Source of the DNA: Balanoglossus misakiensis
Lineage: Eukaryota > Animalia > Hemichordata
Direction: 5' to 3'
NCBI GenBank assembly: GCA_040954595.2
Contig: CM082592.2
Span: 7,613,677 to 7,677,676 of the forward strand
DNA length: 64,000 bases
Position 1 is the stretch's first letter. Every line of letters begins with the position of its first letter. Made by a program: the position numbers and the translations under genes. Under the pieces are notes generated by a model. The model saw nothing but the letters and a program-made list of their open reading frames with translations. It made no database searches and was not told the DNA's origin. Positions 18,401-56,558 of this stretch are shown here, in pieces.

Positions 18401-21400
18401 TTTTTTTTTGCTGGGTATTTTACAGTTTACAGCCATGCATGCATTCATTCTGTTCTTCCTGCTACTCCCCATGGATGGAAAAATCAAATGAGTGTCCGTC
18501 GGTAAGTTGAAGTGGCTGCATACCTCTTTAATGTGACAAAGGCAAATGAGAAAATGAAACTGAATTCATACTGAAACTATAAGATGTCTGTTCATGAAGT
18601 TTCATTTCCATAAAGCACTTAATTTCATTGAGTGAACTTTTGTTTTCTTACAGTGCCGTAACCAAGTGATGAGGCTCAGTCGTAACCACATCGTCAATAA
18701 CTTGGTCGAAGCGTATCTGAAAGAACATCCTGGTAAGGGACGTCCTTCACCTCTTCTGAGTTTCTGAAATTGTGCATCTCATTATCAGCACCTTGATTTT
18801 GTCATCATAGACACCCAATAAAAAGTATTTTGTACAGGCTTTTCTTCATGAAGAATTTGAGTCCAAATAATTAAGCTAAGCTGCTGTGGAAAGCACAACA
18901 ATGAGAGGCGTCGTGTGTGAGTATAATATTGACGTCACCTTTTTCTTGTCTGTCAGAAAAAAGAAGAAGTGAAGAGGAAATCAGAGAACTGAACGCCAAA
19001 AATAAAATCACTGATGACATGGTGAGTTTGAAGATACAGTCATCACACATGTTTGTCTTATTAACTGCCTGGACTACTTTAATGGCCAGCACTGCATTTA
19101 CAGAATGTAAATTTAGAACTATGGCAACTAATTTTTCTAATTTAGAAAGGTTGACTACAAATACTGACTGTCTGTGAGAAATAAATTCTTTAACAAGTAC
19201 TGGTATTTCCAGAAGGGTACTATTAATTCACATGCTTGGGGATGTTTTCAGGTTCAACCAAGACTGCGACGGCGGAATTTAGATGATTATGATGATGGTG
19301 ATTATGGTGATGATGATGATGATGACGATGATGAAGATGATGATGATGATCAAGTTGAATTGTGGGTAGCTATTTTCAAGTTGATGGAAGTGCTTTCAAA
19401 AGCCTCGAATGAATCCATTTTGGGTATTTTGGTGTTTTTGCATTGGTACCAGAGACATTTCTACTGATCTGCAAGTCCAGGTGTTATATAACCAAGTCTT
19501 TATATCAAGAAACACTGAATCAAAGTATATTTCATTCATCTCTTTCATACAATCGCAGGCCTGCAACCGGTTTTGGTGCCAGGATTATTGAAGCTGTAGG
19601 AGGATTGTTTGGTTTGGGTGTTGCAAGGTAAATTTCTGCAGTTGTTGTGCTGATGCAGTATTTGGTGTCTTTTCAGTATTAATGTATTCAATATCCATTT
19701 TCGTGTTGCATGGAGTTTATCGTGAAACTGTGTGTTTTGCTCACGGCCAGACCCCCACCAACGATCTGTAGGCAGTGCCCTGGGAATGTCGCTGAAACTA
19801 CAGCAACCGCTGCAGCAACTGCGACGGCTGCAACGGAATCTGCAGCATCAAGATCTGATGATGCGGGTCCAACTGGAGCCAATGCAAGTACCAGCACTGC
19901 AGCAAGCCCCGGCAGAGCTGCAGCGCCCGACCAGAAGCCGTCCACATCCACGGACGCAGCAGAACGCGATGCTGAGCCTTCAACGTCGACTGGGCTGACC
20001 GGAACTGGTCCACCACCATCCGCAACAAACACAAGGACCACTCCAGACGGCGAAATTGTCAAGATGCCCGACCCGCCCGACTACACCTGCGGTCAAGGCG
20101 AAGTCCACCTGATGTGTTTGTGCTGCAAGCAGGCCATGCCAGACAGGAGAACGGCAGCCGTTACAGACCCAGACATCCCTCCACAACAGTGTAAGTGCCA
20201 CGTAAAATTAGGAGGCTCAGGATACACACACACTTCCATTGTAATTGTGGCTAAGTCTGCATAAGTGACTGCATGTGTACCTTGAAGGGAAGTCTACATT
20301 CTCCAATTTTCAACATTTTACCACCAGACACTGTTGGCAAATCTGACATCATAGTACTGAAATATTTTAAATTTCTTAAAATGATATCAATTTCACAGTC
20401 AATTGTGGGATTTCAATTTTTTCTCTTCTGTTTTTTTTTTTATGCCAGGTGATATTTGTTACAGAGGGTACTGTCACATGTACTGGGGCTGCAAGAGAGT
20501 TGACTGTTATGGCTGTTTGAATCATTTCCGTGGTAAAGATCGGTCTTCGTGCCCCATCTCCACTATTTTTTTTGATGATCTGTTTATCAGCATTTCCCAC
20601 TGTAGCCTGTTGAAACATGAATCCAATATCTGTTGTTATTTTTAAACCAGCATGTACAGTCATCACTATCTTTTCTCTTTCAGACATGAATTTCGGGAAA
20701 AAATCACTAACCAGTGTCATTAACGATAACCCGTATGAATCGGAAATTTTTCGGGTAAGTGTGAATCAGGTCTTTTTTTAGTGGTGTTGTTTAGATGCTG
20801 TTTAGTGAAAGTTGCTGTGTACTGTAAAACTTCTATTAGAAGTGACAGCATAAATTTTAGAGATATACTGTTCTTGAAAAATGAAGGTTATCTATGGCTG
20901 TGTAATGAAAATTTAACTAGGTTCCCCCAAAAAAACAAACTGTTATCTTTATCTTACTCTTTTTAAACAGAATTACATGGAAGACAAGAATTTGTCAGTA
21001 AAGGATGTTTTACGGGAGTGTCTAGTTAGGCTCGACAGAGGTGAATATGTCAGCACAGGTAAGGAATCCCTAAATTGGTAGGGCTGCTCCAACACGTACC
21101 TAGAGTAATTTTGAGTCATGTTCACTTGATTGTTTGTGTGTGTGCATTCCTGTGTGTATGTGTGAGTGTGTGTTTGTGTGCCTGTGAACTTTCATTACCT
21201 CAAGTTCTGTTGGATTTAAATTGTTCTTGATAGTGATTTTTTACTTGTGGGCAATATTTCTTTTCCAGATGCGCACAATTTCAGAGGTAGAAAAGGGTCA
21301 GATGTGAGGATATGCTATCCGTGCGGGCTGCGGAATTTCAAAGAGCTGGCGTATCAGTTCAGGAGAGATATCCCTAGGAGTGAACTTCCAGGTGATTTGA

Positions 21401-32000: not shown

Positions 32001-33462
32001 ACTTCAGCGTCTGATGTTCACTTTATCACCTTGACAGCACCGAGGAGTGTCCATGTGACATACATGTAAAACCACCACAGAGGCTTAATTGATAGTGAGA
32101 GGAGGAAAGAGAAATATCAGCATGCTGTTCAAGATTTTGGATTTTCATACAAAGACGCTTATCGAGCGATCCAGAGTGTAGAGAGAATGTAGCCCAGTAC
32201 TTTGATGTGTGAAATGAATACAAACTAGTCGCTACTCAAACTTTAATGCTGGCTTCAGATGACTCACCATAAGATACTGATCCTCTTTGGGTGATATTCC
32301 TCGTTTATTGAATTCTCCCTGAATAACGATGAAATGCCTGCCTATCAACTACATGTAGGCCCTCTTAATGCTCTCCATTAGATCATAGATACTCAAGTGT
32401 CTTATGACTTGGCTGACCCAGAGCTTTGTATTGGTGCACTTAGTCTGCAACAGAACCTAGCCTTCACATTTTTTTCGCTTTTGCGCATGCACTCACACTT
32501 TGCTGGTATGTTGTGTGTATTATAGACTAGAAGCCAGCACTGTAGAGAAGCTTAGCGTTTATATACTGCAGACACTGATCAGTGACATCTTGCACAGAAA
32601 TCATACTGTCCTAGAAACCCATATGATGGCCATATTTAGTTTCATGGCCCGACCTCCGCAGTGAATTCCCTAATGCATTGATGGCCATGCAAACAATATC
32701 AAATTTAGCCTTTGTGGTTTTGGATTCAAAGAAACTAGACGAAAGATCATTTTAGCAGCAGGAAAACATTCCTGTATTCGGCCACAAACTAAGTGGGATA
32801 ATTGTGGGTAATTGCAATGCCCTTTTCCCGATGTTAACCTATCTAAACTGATGTGATAATTTGATGGTTAGTTTCTGAGAACTCCCCATGATATGACGTC
32901 ACCAACAGACCCTGAACAGCATCCTCCTGAGAGAAATTTCAAGAGGCATACTGTATGTTTAGTTATGCACAGCTAACCTTTTTTCCTGTTTAATCTCCCA
33001 TGGCCAAATGAACAGTTCTGAGCACTATTTTAGACCTTATTAATTTAATTTCTGCCTATGACCATGCAAATATTCCACATGTATGTAGGGCTGTGTTCAA
33101 TGCTCAAGCCAAAATTAGGGACTATGATCGAAACTACATTTCGCGTGTAGTTTTAAAGTTTATAGATTTTGGTCAGTTTTGGGTATTACAGTAGTCATTG
33201 TCATATATTGCCGCTTCTTTGGAAAAGATTGTGGCTTTTAATATAAATGGGGCAATGTTGGATTGTCAATAATAACTTTCTGTTCTACCTCTCTTTGCAG
33301 AATTCGGAAAATACAGCATCTGATGCAGTTTCAGTCAGGAAGAAATATCCTGTTCTCGCACCAGAATTGACTTGCTTAAACCCGAGCGACAGGATATTAT
33401 TCACTTGTACAGTGATATGAATCAGTAATCAGCTCCTATTTTGAAAAAAATCCTGTTGAACA

Positions 33463-35100
33463 ATGCTGAATGTAACCATGAGTTATGAAGACTTGGTGGA
33501 TGGTCCCGGGCCGCCATACTGGGCACTTCATTCCAAAATCGTTCTCACTCTGACCCTAGTTTTGATAATCATCGCCAGCTTGGTTGGCAACGGGATGGTG
33601 ATTTTAGTCGTGCTGTTGAACAAGAGGATGAAGACGAGAACTAATGTGTTCATTATGAGCCTGGCCATCGCAGATATCGGCCTCACTGGAATCTGCATGC
33701 CTTTCTCGTTGATCACCGTCGTCATGGGAGACTGGATCTTCAGCGACACCCTGTGCTACTTTGACGCGTTTGCCAACGCTTTTTTCTTCATTGCGTCTCT
33801 GCAGAGTCTGATGTACATCGCAATTTTCAAATTCTTCTGCATCATGCATCCGTTGAGGCGCATCATAACGCGGAGGAGGGTGATCCTGATGACCGTCGTC
33901 ATATGGATTGCGGCGTTGTTCTGCGCCAGCGGGCCGCTCTTCGGGTGGACCGAGAACGAATACAAACCGGCCGCCACCCAGTGCGGTCCTGCCTACCCGC
34001 AGACAATCAAGCAGAAGTCACACGCGATCAGCATTGCAATGATCGGCTACGTGATTCCGCTGGCGACCATGGCAATCTGCTACAGCAGGATGTTCTACGC
34101 CATCCACCTGCACTCCAAGCGACTGCAGCAGAACACGAGCATGACGCCCCTGGCGATCTCCAACACGCAGAAACGGACAACGATGACCATGTTCATCATC
34201 ATGGCAGCTTTCCTGCTGTGCTGGACACCCTATTTCATCTACGCCATCTGGGCCATATCGCAAGACTACCACGGCATCCCGCTGTGGTTTAACTCATTTG
34301 CATACTGGTGCGGGTATGCAAATTCTGCCGTGAATCCCATTGTTTACGCCTGGAGGTACGATTCCTACAAAGTGGCTTTCAAAAGACTTTTGCTGTGCCA
34401 GAATGGTGCACCTCTCTTATCAAGTAAGTCTTTGCTCACGTGGTAGAGAAAATAATTTATTTAAAAAAAAAATTTTTAGCTTACGAGAAATAGAAATTTT
34501 ATATAACCACAGAATTGATAGTTAAATAGGCATTTTGTGATTTTAATTTGCAATTCCAAGGTTTTTCATTGTGATTAAATTTGTTTTAATCTTTGGCTTG
34601 CAGGCAGCACTCCAATGACGGGCTCACCCGTTTCTTCAAGAAAGTCCAGTTTAGCCATGACGCCGCAACTGGTTGCCAAGTTCAATAAGGTCACCACCGC
34701 GGCCACTATGGAAAGCATGCCACTGGGCAGCCCAATCGTCAACATCAAGAAAATCCAGCCACCGCCGTTGCCAGATCTTCCGTCCTCCAACGGAATTCAC
34801 ACCCATTTGGGAAATTGCGGAGCAGGGAATAAGACGGACCGCACCCAGCACCTGGACAGGGATTGGAGCAAAAGCGAGGCGGATTTCGACGGCGTGTTCG
34901 TCAACGCCAGTGATGGATTGATGGGCGGGAAGACCAGTCGGAGGAAGAGCATCGTCAAATTCATCAGGACCCGCTTCAAGAGCACACCGGTGGGAGACGA
35001 GCTGAAGGATGAGTCCGAGGATGAGGACGAAGTGCTGAAGATCGGGTCTTGTCCAACTAGTTTAGAATACACAACAGCCAATGATGGACAGAGCTGCTGA
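33463..35100 (+). CDS. Orphan rhodopsin-family (class A) GPCR, 2 coding exons, about 485 aa
   Basis: Exons 33463-34423 and 34604-35100 join in phase 1. Seven hydrophobic segments with GN (TM1), LAIAD (TM2), TM3 Cys, W4.50, CWTPY (TM6), NPIVY (TM7) and a long Ser/Thr-rich tail. Confidence 0.93.
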
Positions 35101-35925: not shown

Positions 35926-36398
35926 TCACTGCACCAACTGGCCTCCCAGAGCTCGGAGAAGGAGCGAATAAACGGCAAATGTGACTGCATTGACTGGGAA
36001 TCCACGGATGCAGTTGATTCCCAATCCGGTCCAGAACACCCGGAATCCACCCGACTTGTAACTGTCGGCAAAGCAGTGCAGCACGCCGCGATACATCTGA
36101 CCCCTCACACCGTCGGCCTGCAGCCGGTTTTTGACGACGTCAAGCGGATTGATTGCGGCCCAAGAGGAGGTACCCGCTACCCCTCCCGCTAGCAACAGCA
36201 CCCAGGTGCTCGGGTGACGCCTTCCTTCGGGAGTCAATCGAGCGCACAGAACTCCGTAGGTCAGGAAGTATATTCCCGATGCCAGTACATCCCGGAATGC
36301 CATGACTGGGAGACCCCGGTAGCAGCCCTTTATTCCCTCAGCTCTGAAGATGCTGGTAATACAATGGATTGGCCCGCTGTAATTTGTGAACGCCTGCC
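35926..36398 (-). CDS. Alternative terminal exon C of the SLC25 carrier (isoform 296 aa)
   Basis: Acceptor ttccttacatttcag|GG in phase 1, open 473 nt to TGA; close paralogue of exon A. AATAAA on - at 35314-35319. Confidence 0.85.
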
Positions 36399-37128
36399 CT
36401 GAAATGTAAGGAAATTTCAAATTCTAGATCAGGTGTATGACAGTATGGAGAGGACATTTCAAGACCTTGTGCAGATCTTGAAGTTCTACAAGGAAACAAA
36501 GAATCATATTTATTGAATCGGGAGATTGAATGTCAGTGTAGCCCTTCCACCACCATGGTTCGGTCCCAATCCATTGTGCACAGCAAATAGGGACTGATGT
36601 TATTGTAAGATGGATGAATAACAAGGACACGGAATTGTATTGCAATGGAATATTTATTCATATTTTAATATGAAATCTGTCCATCACAGACTGGAAATTC
36701 TTGGATTAGTGATAGACCCAATTGAAAATTCAACACTACTCTCTCTCTGGGAATTGGTATGTCTTTTGTAAATTCTGAGAACACTTGAAAAATTCACAAA
36801 TTAGTTACACACCACTATAAAGTCGGCCATAGCATTTGTCTCAATTTAAAAAATACTGACTTTAAGTACTGTAGATTGCATTCTGGTGCACCCACACCTG
36901 TGATTATTCATTAACATTCAGTGTGTCGAAGACTGAGCTATGCTCCTTTCTTTTGAAGACATTTTGCATATAATATAGTGAGTGATTGGGCTGTATGGTT
37001 TGACCATGAATAAGCCTTAGGCATTGTTACTGCAGCTTCAAAAGTTAATGCCATAGGCTTCAATGATTTGTTTGGACTAGCTACCATGCAAATGAAAATA
37101 AGTAAAAGGCGAAAAATGATACAACTCC

Positions 37129-37625
37129 TCATTTGGCAGCTGCCCTGCTGTGTTCCCCGAACGCGCGTAAAGTGAGTGAGTACACAGTGAAGGTGATGGC
37201 ACTGACTGGGAAGTCGCCCAGAGAATTGATGGAGAGGCCGGTGCAGAACGCTCGGACGCCCCCGGTCCTGTAAGTGTCCACGACACAGTGCCACAAGTTG
37301 CGGTATTTGTGTTCGTGTACTCCGTCGGCTTGCATTTTGCTTTTGATGACGTCGACGGGCGTGATCGACCCCCAGGCGAAAATCCCCGCCGTCCCTCCGG
37401 CGACAAAGAGGGCCCAGGGGCTAGGCTGGCTGTGTCCCGACAGAGTGAGTTCCCGGCACAGCAGTTCGTAGAGCAGGAAGTATATGCCGCATGCGGGAAC
37501 ATCCCGGGCGGCCGTGGACAGCATTCCCCGGAAGAGGCCGCGTGGTCCCTCATTCTGGATCACTTTGTTGACACAGTGGATCGGCCCTCTGTAATTCGGG
37601 AAGTGTCCTATTGAAGAAGTCTGAC
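37129..37625 (-). CDS. Alternative terminal exon B of the SLC25 carrier (isoform 304 aa)
   Basis: Acceptor ttggtttcag|GT in phase 1, open 497 nt to TGA; encodes H4-H6 (RDVP, TPVDVIKSKMQ, INSLGDFPVSA). AATAAA on - at 36653-36658. Confidence 0.85.
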
Positions 37626-37830: not shown

Positions 37831-37963
37831 CAAAGTGTAGGATATAGAATATAGTCGACCGCAGTTCCTGTCTTCTGAATGTTCTTATTATCACGTTTTT
37901 TTTAACAAGGAACATTCAGAAGATGGGAACTGCGGTCGAGCATATTTTATATTCTACACTTTG
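37831..37963. repeat. Long inverted repeat / fold-back (arms of about 57 bp)
   Basis: caaagtgtaggatatagaatatagtcgaccgcagttcctgtcttctgaatgttc is matched by the reverse complement of gaacattcagaagatgggaactgcggtcgagcatattttatattctacactttg, with few mismatches. Confidence 0.9.
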
Positions 37964-39086: not shown

Positions 39087-41597
39087 TTACTGCGAAGCAA
39101 CCTGTCCGCCCAGGGCCCGGAGAAGTAGTGAGTAGACGGCAAACGTGACCGCATTCACCGGAAACCCCCGGATACAGTTGATGGACACGCCCGTCCAAAA
39201 CACGCGTAGTCCGCCCGTCCGGTAGCTGTCCGCGAAACAGTGCAGCACTCCGCGGTACCTCGCGCTGGCCACGCCGTCGGCCTGCAGTCGGCTCTTGACG
39301 ACGTCCAGGGGGTTGATGACGACCCAGGAGGCCGACCCGGCCAACCCTCCGGCCAGAAGCAACGCCAGAGTACCCGGGTGGCTCTTGCCTTCCGGCGTGA
39401 AATGCCGGCACAGCACCTCGTAGCCCAGGAAGTAGATGCCAAACGCCGGCGTGTCTCGGAATACCATCACAGGCAGACCCCTGTAGCAGCCGCGGATTCC
39501 TTCGGCTTTGAAGATGCTTGCGATGCAGTGAACTGGCCCGCTGTATCTTGGTGTAACTTCGCCGAGGGGAGACGCACCTGAAACAAAATTGTGTACAACA
39601 GACTAGCACTCCAGATTATCTACAGCCACTGGACACCAACTGAGATGAAATCACACGTCAAACAAAGGACCTAGACAGTATTAAAACTGAGGCATAGTGC
39701 AAGAACAAAATTACCTTATGTGGATTAGGCTGTGGAAATCACAAGTAACCGGTTGTGAATTCCAACAAAACTGCCGGGGTTACCGTAATCTTCACCCGGA
39801 GATGGTGCCCCATTGATATTCGTGTGCTGATCTCTTAAGGATGTACGTGCACTACAAGTGCATGGAATTTGTCTCTTCCCATAGGGACTTTTTTTCACAG
39901 GGAGTCAGTGTGGAGTAATCTTTGAAAGGCTGGGGTGTGGTGTGGTGTGGTGTACAAGTGCCATATGAAATACTGGCAATGTATTGTACAAAATAACATC
40001 GCATTGCACTTATGCAGAGTGCCGCGCACTGCAATGGTTGATGTGTGGTAAAGCATGATCATAGAGATCTTTACATCTTTACATGTATATGTTTGTACAG
40101 CTATCTTAACATCACTTTACGTGGTACCAACTTGAAATGAGAACCCTCTTATAAAATGTAACCCCCCCCCTCCCCATTTCCCTCTGTAGAGGTCCTAATT
40201 TACCATATCAAACAAGGAAATACATCTAGGAGATATAAACATGCATATCAGCATTCCTGAACAAGTTCTAGCGCACAAAGATTATAGTCTTAGCAACAAG
40301 TCTTCCTGAAGTTATTGTACATAGTGCCAAAAGATTGAACACTGGTCCAGCATCAGCATCCAGGCATGCAATACGCACACAGGGATAAATTTCTCTGAAG
40401 GTTTGTTTGGGAAAGCAACCAGGTTGTGAAATACACACACGCAATACAACACACGTTCATTTACCTCTGCCGTGAGTCTGCATCTGCAGGCGAATCTTGA
40501 CCAGCTCCACAGGACATGCAATGCTGAGCTGAACGAAACCAGCTACAGACCCGGCAATGAAGATGTCCGTCTTGGTGGCGGGTTTGTTGGCTGCCTCGTG
40601 CCGCCACGCTGAAAGTCTGTGGAGGGTGTTGCCATAGACACCGAAAATGACCGCATTCTGGACACAAATTGTGGCCAGGGGGAAACCCATTCCTTTGTAA
40701 AAGCCAAAAATCTGCAAGTGTGCGGAGAAAATGGTGTGAACAGTAAGAAAACATGTAATTATTGTGCTATTGGAATACCACAACATGTAATAACATTTCT
40801 GACTATTTACGGTAGGAATGACATGACATTGGTTGTTATGTAGAGAAGTACTTACCGATTCATGACGTATTGTTTTATAAATGCAGTCGAAAATGCCCTT
40901 ATATTGCACTGTGCCAAGGCTCTGTGCTTGCAGTCTGACCTGCAAGGAAAGCGACATTTTTAAATGTACAGGGGTGCATGCAGCTAAGTTGACGGAAATG
41001 GTTTCACATTTGGCCACTCCTCGCAACAAAGGAGTAAAGTGAAATGGTCATGTACTGATGGGCTCACATCTGTACATGACCATTGTGTCATATTATCATA
41101 AAACCCACCTTAATTGTATCCAGTGGATGCCCTACTATGATACCAGCTCCTCCTGCAAATGGAGAAAGAAATGGCATTGAATGGAATTTAATATTATGAT
41201 GAAAATATCAATATTATTTTCGGGGCAATTTTCCCATTTTTAGTCAAAAACTCGCTTTTTCAGTTGCGTTTGCTTTGCTTTATAATTTCTTAACAATTTG
41301 GCTTGGCTTGCAACTTGTATGCGTGCATCAATAATCCTACCCTACCCCCCCCCCCCCCCCATAAAGCAAATGGTTCTCCCCTTCCCAGAATGCAACTGAC
41401 GGGACAGGCTGGAAAATGGGTCCCTCTTCACGTACACGTATCCCTGACTGTCCAGATCATTGTTATCTGGACTTTAGCGAAACCTCCCCGGGTTTAGGCC
41501 GTCGGGATAACAGGCTGCAAATCAGGAAAAGAGATGAGCTCTCTTTTTACTTACCGCCCACAAGCCCTGCGATGAAATCTGCCCACAAAAACACCAT
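39087..41597 (-). CDS. SLC25A45: Mitochondrial carrier, SLC25A45/A48/A29 group, isoform A (shared exons 1-4 plus terminal exon A, 302 aa)
   Basis: Shared exons 41555-41597, 41109-41152, 40856-40939 and 40465-40711 (DFIAG, GHPLDTIKVRLQ, GFYKGMGFPL, CPVELVKIRLQ; ends phase 1), then exon A 39087-39577 (RD, NPLDVVKSRLQ, INCIRGFPVNAVTF). Exact orthologue within the A45/A48/A29 group is uncertain. Confidence 0.85.
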
Positions 41598-54022: not shown

Positions 54023-56558
54023 ATGTTTCAACAAGCTGGGTACCAAGGTGACAGGATTGTGATGGACGAATATAACAGTGATTTGCACTTGTGTGCAGCG
54101 CCTGACGGTGTGACAGGCTGGGATCTGCACGACAAAGGATTCCAGTATATGTGGGCCGGAGGTCGCGCTACACACGGAGTACGACAAGGCAGGGTAAGTG
54201 TATCTGGGACGTCCAATGAATGATAATCAGATATTGATACATATAGTCAATCGAGACGTTGCTTAAGTTACATAGTATATAGTGATTTAGATACAGGCCA
54301 ATCAAATTGGTAAATTACATCAGTTCTTTTAATTTGATCAATGAAATGCAAAATATTGCCTAGACTACAAAACTTGACATTTATTAGCTTTTCACTTGCA
54401 GGTATGCTTTGAGTGTACTGTGATTGAGTATCAAAATGTGGATATGCCAGAAACAGAGAAAGTCCCCCACGTACTGCGAGTTGGATGGTCTACACACAAC
54501 ACCGGCTTTGACCTGGGAGAAACCAGTCTGTCATATGGGTTTGGTGGGACGGGTAAAATCTCGTCGAACAACAAATTCATGGACTATGGCCAGCCGTTCG
54601 GAGTTGGGGACACCATCACCTGCTACTTAGACCTGGACGCACGTCCAGCTGCCATCTTTTATGCAAAGAATGGACAGTACTTGGGAGTGGCGTTCAAACC
54701 GGGCTCGGAAATAAGTGGACAGACTTTGTATCCTCACGTGAACCTCAAGAACGTTCGGTTTGAGATAAACTTTGGGGATAGACCCCCGAGGTTTCAAATC
54801 ACGCAGGGATTTCAAATGCTGCAGTGGTTGCCGCCAAACGCTCTTATCCAGGCTCCGTGCGAGTCAAATCGGAAAGAGGATCACGAAATTTTGATGATGA
54901 TCGGCTTGCCCGGAAGTGGGAAGACTACTTGGGCCGAGCAGTACACCAAGCAGCATCCCGATAAGAAATACTATATCTTGGGAACAAATGCTATCATAGA
55001 CAAAATGAAAGTGATGGGCCTTAAAAGGCAGAAGAACTACCATGGTCGGTGGGACCAGCTCATAAAACAGTCCACAGACTGCCTGAACCAAACGTTCAAA
55101 CTTGCCGAGAGAAAAGTGAGAAATTACATCTTGGATCAGACCAATGTGTACTTCACTGCGAGAAGACGGAAAATGAACAATTTCAGGGGGTTCAAGCGAA
55201 TCGCGATCGTCCTTGTCAACACTAAAGAAGAACTTGACAGGAGAATTGAAAAGAGGACAAGAGAGGAAGGCAAAGTTGTCCCAGAGTCGGCTGTGAAGGA
55301 AATGATGGCAAATTTCTCCCTCCCGGAAGTCGGAGACTGCTTTGATGAAGTTCGATATGTTGAGGAAGATGAGCAAAAGTCCAAGGAGCTTGTCGACATG
55401 TACAAGAAAGAAGGACTTGAGTTCAAGAACCAGGAGAAGAAAAGATCTGCCGAAGGAGAAAACGAGCCTCCAAGTAAAAGATTTAGCTCAGGAGGTCCGC
55501 GAGGTCCGCCAGGGGGGTTTATGCCACAAAGAGGTGGGCCGGATGGATTTCCCCCCAGAGGTGGCCCAGATGGATTCCCTCCCAGAGGTGGCCCAGATAG
55601 ATTTTCTCCCAGAGGGCCGCCACCAATGGGAGCAAGGGGTCCACCAGGAGGTTACCCGGGAAGAAGTACAGAATTAGACTTTCAGCGAGATCGTGATTAC
55701 CAGCGGGGTCCACCTGGGAATGGTTATCAACGGGGTCCATCACCGGGGAGCGATTACAAACAGGGGCCAATGGGGAGCGATTACCAGCGGGGTGCACCTG
55801 GGGGCGACTATAAACAGGGTCCAATGGGGAGCAGTTACCAGCGGGGTCCACCAGGAGGTGGCTACGGCAGGGGGGATGCACCGCCCCCACGAGACAATTA
55901 CGGACAAGCGTATGGCGACTTCAAGCGGATTAAGGAGGAACCGTCGCAGCCAGGGTATGGCCAAGGGTGGGACAGTCAGTCTCAGCAGGGAGGGTACGGC
56001 GGGTATGCCTCACAGATGTCGTCATCCGCATATCAAGGTGGTCCTGGTGCTGGTGGTGGCAGCATGCAGCAGCAGACAGGCACTTACGGAGCATCGTCAT
56101 ACGGCAGAGATTCATCCAGCAGAAGTTACGAAGGCCAAGGCTACGGCGCCACCATCAAAACAGAACCTGGTCAAGGTCAGTACGGTGCCACTGCTGGAGG
56201 AACAGCCGGCGCTTGCTCACAACCGTACGGGGCATCGTCCGGAGGCTACAGCCAAGGCAGGCAACAATCAGGATACGGGTCGTACTCCCAACCAAGCCAA
56301 GGGTACGGCAGTCAAGCGAGCCAGGGCTACCAGCAAGGCCAGCAGGGCTATTCTTCTGGCCAGTCGCAGGGTTACGCCAGCCAGCCAAGTCAGGGATATC
56401 CCAGCCAGCCAAGCCAAGGCTACTCCAGCCAGCCAGCCCAGGGCTACCCTAGTCAACCCCAAGGGTACTCCAGCCAGCAAGGGCAAGGTTATTCCGGCCA
56501 GAGTGGGTATGGAAGTGCTGGGTACGGAGGTGGATATCAACAAGGCCCTAAGTATTGA
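54023..56558 (+). CDS. HNRNPUL1: hnRNP U / hnRNP UL1-like protein (SPRY, P-loop AAA/PNK-like, RGG and SYGQ low-complexity tail), 2 coding exons, about 775 aa
   Basis: Exons 54023-54193 and 54402-56558 join in phase 0. SPRY: FQYMWAGGRATHGV, LRVGWS, SYGFGGTG. Walker A GLPGSGKT, NYILDQTNVY, VPESAVKEM. No SAP domain seen. Which paralogue it is remains uncertain. Confidence 0.88.

Follow-up and report, generated by a model that had tools for sequence, protein, structure and literature searches.

An acorn-worm gene for a likely mitochondrial carrier with three predicted alternative last exons, one of which replaces the arginine of contact point III

Results

Organization of the carrier gene

The window analysed here is a 64,000-nt stretch of Balanoglossus misakiensis contig CM082592.2, and all positions given below refer to this window. 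Its minus strand contains a mitochondrial carrier gene consisting of four shared 5′ exons, which encode helices 1-3 (H1 to H3), and three duplicated last exons, herein designated A, B and C, each of which encodes helices 4-6 (H4 to H6). The shared exons are located at 41555..41597 (exon 1, with the ATG start codon, the start of H1, a GT donor and an N-terminus matching that of Ptychodera flava), 41109..41152 (exon 2, with the H1 signature HPLDTIK), 40856..40939 (exon 3, matrix loop 1) and 40465..40711 (exon 4, with H2 including contact point I, and the H3 signature PVELVK). Exons 2 and 3 are bounded by AG/GT and are in frame, and exon 4 ends with a phase-1 donor common to all three last exons. 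The last exons, A (39087..39577), B (37129..37625) and C (35926..36398), all on the minus strand, each start at a phase-1 AG acceptor, that of exon B being accompanied by a pyrimidine tract, and each include an open frame with its own stop codon. The Mito_carr domain (PF00153; cut-off 22.3 bits) was detected in all three, with scores of 127, 124.9 and 119.7 bits, respectively. A downstream AATAAA or ATTAAA signal is present for each exon, and for exon B two AATAAA signals follow the stop codon at 36658 and 36514 (minus strand). The predicted proteins of isoforms A, B and C are 302, 304 and 296 residues in length.

A tblastn search within the window detected one N-terminal half and three C-terminal halves, with no fourth, and the possibility that exon B belongs to a separate gene was thus ruled out, there being no second 5′ half in the window. 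With a stop codon in each, exons A, B and C are predicted to serve as alternative terminal exons and not as internal cassettes. The set of homologous 3′ exons in the same phase, each with its own stop codon and poly(A) signal, behind a single 5′ half is the arrangement of tandem-duplicated alternative last exons. The choice of the last exon, by alternative splicing or polyadenylation, would join the common helices 1-3 to differing helices 4-6. Among the matches listed, the closest proteins were SLC25A45-like proteins of acorn worms. The shared half is identical at 124/138 positions with P. flava and at 93/137 with one Glandiceps protein. The gene product is likely a mitochondrial transporter of the SLC25A45/47/48-like type, as judged from its sequence.

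Several other features were recognized in the window. A gene for a rhodopsin-family GPCR (7tm_1, E 8.8e-53) lies on the plus strand at 33460-34446 and 34579-35100, the latter being a probable second exon, in a tail-to-tail arrangement with the carrier gene and about 800 nt from the stop codon of exon C. Also on the plus strand, a 726-codon open stretch (54378-56558) includes SPRY and AAA_33 domains, which we take to be the architecture of hnRNP U-like proteins, and a 193-codon stretch (19683-20264) gave a weak hit to zf-CRD that falls short of the curated cut-off. Inside the carrier gene, the intron between exons A and B carries an inverted repeat (37831-37963; 54-nt arms, 89% complementary, separated by 25 nt) about 200 nt ahead of the exon B acceptor, which could be a small mobile element or could influence the choice of exon, while intron 2 carries a short hairpin (41043-41084; 18-nt arms, 94% complementary).

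Contact-point-III change in exon B

The H6 segment of exon B (minus strand 37230-37189) reads INSLGDFPVSAITF, whereas the same segment of exons A (from 39182) and C (from 36018) reads INCIRGFPVNAVTF. At the protein level, INCIRGFPVNA of A and C corresponds to INSLGDFPVSA in B. The replacement of Arg-Gly by Gly-Asp, as described in the original prediction, was thus found at the sequence level, with Gly276 (codon GGC, 37218-37216) and Asp277 (codon GAC, 37215-37213) together occupying 37213..37218 on the minus strand. The replaced Arg was correctly assigned to contact point III, since it aligns with R268 of human SLC25A45 and R257 of human SLC25A29. A third change in the motif, unremarked earlier, converts Asn at position +5 from contact point III to Ser281 (codon AGT, 37203-37201 of the minus strand; 37201..37203), and Ser is likewise found at this position in SLC25A48. 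A sequencing error or frame slip in exon B was ruled out because the frame is open over 164 codons and the identical INSLGDFPVSA is present in isoform X1 of P. flava.

The remainder of the substrate site is retained in isoform B. Arg180-Asp181 of contact point II (37501..37506) and Trp224 on H5 (37372..37374) are both encoded on the minus strand as in A and C, the H5 signature PVDVIK is intact from 37359, and the Px[DE]xx[KR] signatures on H1, H3 and H5 are all preserved (P24-D26-K29, P124-E126-K129 and P229-D231-K234), in agreement with the earlier claim that exon B keeps the H4 pair and the carrier signature. Of the marks of the amino-acid/carnitine class (SLC25A20/29/45/47/48), isoform B thus carries R[DE] at contact point II and the H5 Trp, and lacks the contact-point-III Arg. 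Isoforms A and C, like each of the 20 further R-type proteins tabulated, have a formal site charge of +1, as compared with −1 for B and P. flava X1 and 0 for P. flava X2; the proposed charge switch holds, the site having lost two units of positive charge. Asp277 occupies the H6 position symmetric to Asp181 on H4 and Ile72 on H2.

Exon C has differences of its own from exon A. Leu replaces a conserved Pro two residues past the H4 Asp, and Gly replaces the Glu of the H4 cytoplasmic motif. From these replacements, exon C may differ functionally from exon A.

Rarity of the change among relatives

An exhaustive HMMER search supplied the first set of relatives, its top 150 representatives. Of these, 127 were aligned over both H4 and H6, and contact point II was R[DE] in 115. 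Among these 115, the contact-point-III Arg was present in 112 and an acidic residue beside contact point III in none. The three exceptions were P. flava X2 and two unrelated carriers, a Codosiga protein with Gln-Ala and an unnamed protein with Thr-Ser in place of the H6 Arg and its neighbour. In a second set of 120 proteins listed, Arg was present in 101/103, the two exceptions being P. flava X1 and X2. Because the Arg is this constant among the relatives listed in both sets, the change in exon B is not a matter of chance variation. The H5 Trp was present in 113/115 and 102/103 relatives of the respective sets.

Just two species were found to have the G-D motif, B. misakiensis (in the window) and P. 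flava. Using the B-type half of P. flava as query, no further G-D protein was found (5 matches among 291 candidates), and of the 165 pattern matches in a metagenome scan a single one proved to be a relative, with R-A as in ordinary carriers. The proteins retrieved from Saccoglossus (n=1) and Glandiceps (n=5) as the best matches listed all keep R-G.

Isoforms of P. flava and phylogeny of helices 4-6

In P. flava, four RefSeq-predicted isoforms, X1 to X4, have the same N-terminal half and are inferred to differ by the last exon. Conservation of G-D in a related species, on which the original prediction depended, was observed, as X1 contains the same motif as exon B, while X3 and X4 have R-G. The X1 protein is thus already in RefSeq as an unremarked isoform. 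The X2 isoform represents a second B-type half, with G-A at contact point III and with the H5 Trp, the +5 Asn and a conserved Phe also lost; its site is neutral, and purifying selection is still visible. Since X2 has lost the Arg and has Ala at the next position, loss of the Arg does not need the Asp.

A tree of H4-H6 was constructed from 66 rows (one of the 67 chosen was dropped, its H4 being unaligned) after removal of the three trait columns, 151 of 161 columns being kept. Even with the trait columns removed, exon B and X1 are sisters (100/80), and X2 joins this pair (100/99) on a long B-type stem of 0.32 changes per column inside the hemichordate clade. From this topology, the Arg would therefore have been lost once, on the B stem, and the Asp would either be a later gain or have disappeared from X2. 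The 14 hemichordate rows together make up a single clade (97/93), which lies outside the vertebrate SLC25A45/47/48 clade (100/94), the joining node lacking resolution. Because of this position, the hemichordate gene is not a one-to-one orthologue of SLC25A45.

The R-type halves show a separate pattern. Exons A and C group together (89/71) though B lies between them, and X3 groups with X4; independent duplications or gene conversion, possibly following duplication of an R-type/B-type pair, may account for these groupings. In Glandiceps there are no fewer than five separate paralogues, each with an N-terminal half of its own and four of them on a contig of equal length, and a second gene of P. 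flava has an H3 signature without the acid. As judged from these sequences, the family appears to have gained whole genes in one lineage and last exons in the other.

Constraint on exon B and predicted fold

Exon B is about as conserved between the two species as exons A and C, the identity being 116/162 for B and X1, 112/160 for A and X4, and 106/156 for C and X4. For a finer comparison, 174 non-hemichordate relatives (284 before removal of near-copies) gave 26 columns with at least 85% conservation; the rows had been chosen to have Arg, so that the Arg column is invariant by construction. B and X1 each keep 24 of the 26 columns, the only departures being the contact-point-III Arg and the +5 Asn, and X2 keeps 22. 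B and X1 differ at 44 positions, not one of which is a conserved column (7.7 expected), and the same pattern was seen for the 41 differences between A and X4 (0/41). For this reason exon B is not decaying, and the pattern supports purifying selection on it. The dN/dS ratio, rough because dS exceeds 1, was 0.36 and 0.38 for B against A and C, and 0.13 for A against C. The GC3 content of exon B is 0.71, as compared with a GC content of 0.35-0.36 in the flanking introns. At 17 positions the two B orthologues share a residue that none of the 11 R-G hemichordate rows has, and several of these positions are predicted to lie in the cavity.

Single-sequence structure prediction gave a pLDDT of only 31.7, and an alignment-based model was used instead. 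The AlphaFold model of P. flava X1, built on 122 sequences, has a pLDDT of 90.5 with an unbroken H6, and its best fold matches are UCP1 and the ADP/ATP carrier at TM 0.6-0.73, as expected for the predicted six-helix SLC25 fold. The model shows compatibility of the predicted fold with SLC25, which is no proof of transport. A search for a solved structure of this subfamily gave 8 distant matches only.

Given the open frame, the intact acceptor, the identical motif in P. flava and the pattern of purifying selection, exon B can scarcely be a dead pseudo-exon or the product of an error in the sequence.

Discussion

Substrate site of isoform B

For carriers of this class, the Arg of contact point III has been studied in SLC25A29 and SLC25A45. 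In simulations, the substrate carboxylate is bound by R257 of SLC25A29, which also forms a stack with the H5 Trp and a pair with the H1 Asp (PMC8598871). In a preprint on SLC25A45, docking put the carboxylate of trimethyllysine on R173/D174, and the simulation then moved it to R268 (10.64898/2025.12.16.694762). The R268A substitution in SLC25A45 abolished the carrier-dependent, trimethyllysine-dependent synthesis of deoxycarnitine in cells (PMC12594208). On the basis of these simulations and of this loss of output, it is unlikely, by analogy, that isoform B binds the SLC25A45 ligand in the same way. The H4 Arg-Asp pair has been assigned to the carboxylate and the amine of amino-acid substrates (PMC6769469).

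The reading that we favour, and to which we give an even chance, is that exon B encodes a working carrier that binds a more cationic substrate than A and C, of the amine or guanidinium type. That a carrier can function in the absence of this Arg is shown by the glutamate carriers GC1 and GC2 (PMC6769469). In isoform B, Gly276 would vacate the room in which the Arg side chain meets the H5 Trp and the H1 Asp, and Asp277 would hold an ammonium or guanidinium group that the substrate supplies. Asp277 likely faces the cavity, because it is symmetric to positions on H2 and H4 that line the cavity in published models, L69 and E161 in the model of SLC25A29 (PMC8598871) and I66 and D174 in the simulations of SLC25A45 (10.64898/2025.12.16.694762). 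Since the H4 Arg-Asp is intact and no extra aromatic residues are present, the most likely substrates of B would be basic amino acids, methylated or not (Lys, Orn or Arg), or the amines formed from them by decarboxylation (agmatine, putrescine or cadaverine), rather than choline. Binding of a basic amino acid through three contacts and binding of agmatine or a diamine across Asp181 and Asp277 are equally compatible with the site. From general chemistry, we infer that a trimethylammonium group would be a poorer match than a guanidinium or primary amine for an acid that has no aromatic cage. Splicing may plausibly alter the class of substrate carried. The narrower proposal, that B is a dedicated carrier of diamines, polyamines or agmatine with symmetric H4 and H6 aspartates, so that the choice of last exon would switch between an amino-acid carrier and an amine carrier, is tentative, and we regard it as somewhat improbable.

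Some points count against the favoured reading. SLC25A48 carries choline with a +1 site, and the site charge is thus no simple guide to the charge of the substrate. P. flava X2, the sister half, shows that the Arg can go with no Asp appearing beside it. The R268A substitution is a loss of function in SLC25A45, and contact point III is described in reviews as nearly always positive and doubling as a hinge, without conferring specificity (PMC7611774, PMC12410006).

Alternative readings

Asp277 may instead be a proton-binding site, isoform B moving the substrate class of A and C in symport with H+. Acidic residues are described in the site of proton-coupled carriers (PMC7611774), and the glutamate carriers GC1 and GC2 (SLC25A22/18) are described as working carriers that, like B, lack the contact-point-III Arg (PMC6769469); these, however, belong to another subfamily, transport an anionic substrate, and are likened to B by description, outside the alignment. 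Trimethyllysine, dimethylarginine and choline, being net cations, would enter the energised matrix without a proton, and we consider proton coupling unlikely.

The retention of helices 1-3, of the H4 Arg-Asp and of the H5 Trp would allow B to carry the same methylated basic amino acids as A and C, with another affinity or rate and with the carboxylate at Arg180 alone, much as the initial docking placed it in SLC25A45 (10.64898/2025.12.16.694762). The effect of R268A on SLC25A45 (PMC12594208) argues against such binding, as do the 17 positions specific to the B orthologues, and a shared substrate is in our view quite unlikely. The same mutant result, together with the losses in X2 (22/26 columns), could point to a folded, non-transporting isoform, either regulatory or a splicing sink that lowers the output of A and C. 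In isoform B, however, none of the gate and signature residues examined is lost, and a mid-membrane Gly-to-Asp change kept in two species is unlike relaxed constraint, so that we judge this role, too, quite unlikely.

The original prediction further proposed that B may carry a purely cationic substrate lacking a carboxylate, for example one of choline type, and the step from loss of the Arg to a choline-type substrate was not supported. The family handles trimethylammonium groups, choline weakly stabilises SLC25A45, and Ser at +5 is shared by B with 27/27 SLC25A48 sequences. The R-G pair is, however, retained in the same 27/27 aligned sequences (of 41 named, 14 were unaligned over both helices), and Ser at +5 is also present in one R-G paralogue of Glandiceps. 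Two cavity positions, position 12 of H2 and position 13 of H4, are Tyr in 6/6 SLC25A48 sequences tabulated, in contrast to Gln75 and Cys185 of B; one cavity Tyr, Y72, is mentioned in the preprint (10.64898/2025.12.16.694762). In addition, B retains Arg180-Asp181, which is able to bind a carboxylate. A clade of B with SLC25A48, and with it descent of B from SLC25A48, was rejected (p-AU 0.012) in a quick tree of 39 rows, run after the H4-H6 tree had been seen. The likeness of Ser281 to SLC25A48 is likely convergent, and a carrier of choline or another quaternary amine working like SLC25A48 appears very unlikely.

Comparison with known carriers

As the nearest named relative among the matches listed, SLC25A45, the carrier of trimethyllysine and dimethylarginine, shares with A and C the R-D, the H5 Trp and the +1 site, whereas B lacks the equivalent of R268. 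The choline carrier SLC25A48 shares with B the Ser at +5, the R-D and the H5 Trp, but it keeps the Arg, has two extra cavity tyrosines and is not the sister of B. In published descriptions, SLC25A29, ORC1/2 and CAC have the common architecture of R[DE], Trp and Arg, and all keep the H6 Arg, unlike B. ORC1 is described as having an extra acidic residue on H2 (Glu77), in contrast to that of isoform B on H6 (PMC8598871, PMC6769469).

In the phosphate carrier SLC25A3, the alternative exons are short and internal, and the substrate is unchanged. Alternative splicing of this carrier is known (PMC13385207), and 3′ coding exons that arose by duplication and are selected through alternative poly(A) usage, including tandem-duplicated C-terminal exons, are described as a known class (PMC8373072). 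The gene described here would belong to the same class; here half the carrier, with two of the three contact points, would be swapped. In a literature search, made mostly outside subscription journals and on main texts, no paper was found that deals with this hemichordate gene or with a carrier whose H4-H6 can be exchanged. Passages of a hemichordate genome paper mention slc25a21 only (PMC11175523).

Biological implications

Selection has kept a carrier in which the charge of contact point III is removed and a neighbouring acid is present, with the frame otherwise intact, beside siblings with which it shares half of its sequence. Isoforms A, B and C are thus a natural, internally controlled test of the role of the Arg, as substrate contact or hinge, and of cation uptake by carriers. 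To our knowledge, no gene has been assigned to mitochondrial polyamine uptake. Such uptake has been described from isolated mitochondria (review, PMC7020012), and if isoform B moves diamines or polyamines, the finding would bear on it. If the reading of B as an amine carrier is true, the H6 motif would provide a sequence signature for polyamine uptake of the SLC25 type, and two or three changes in H6 would be enough to reverse the substrate class.
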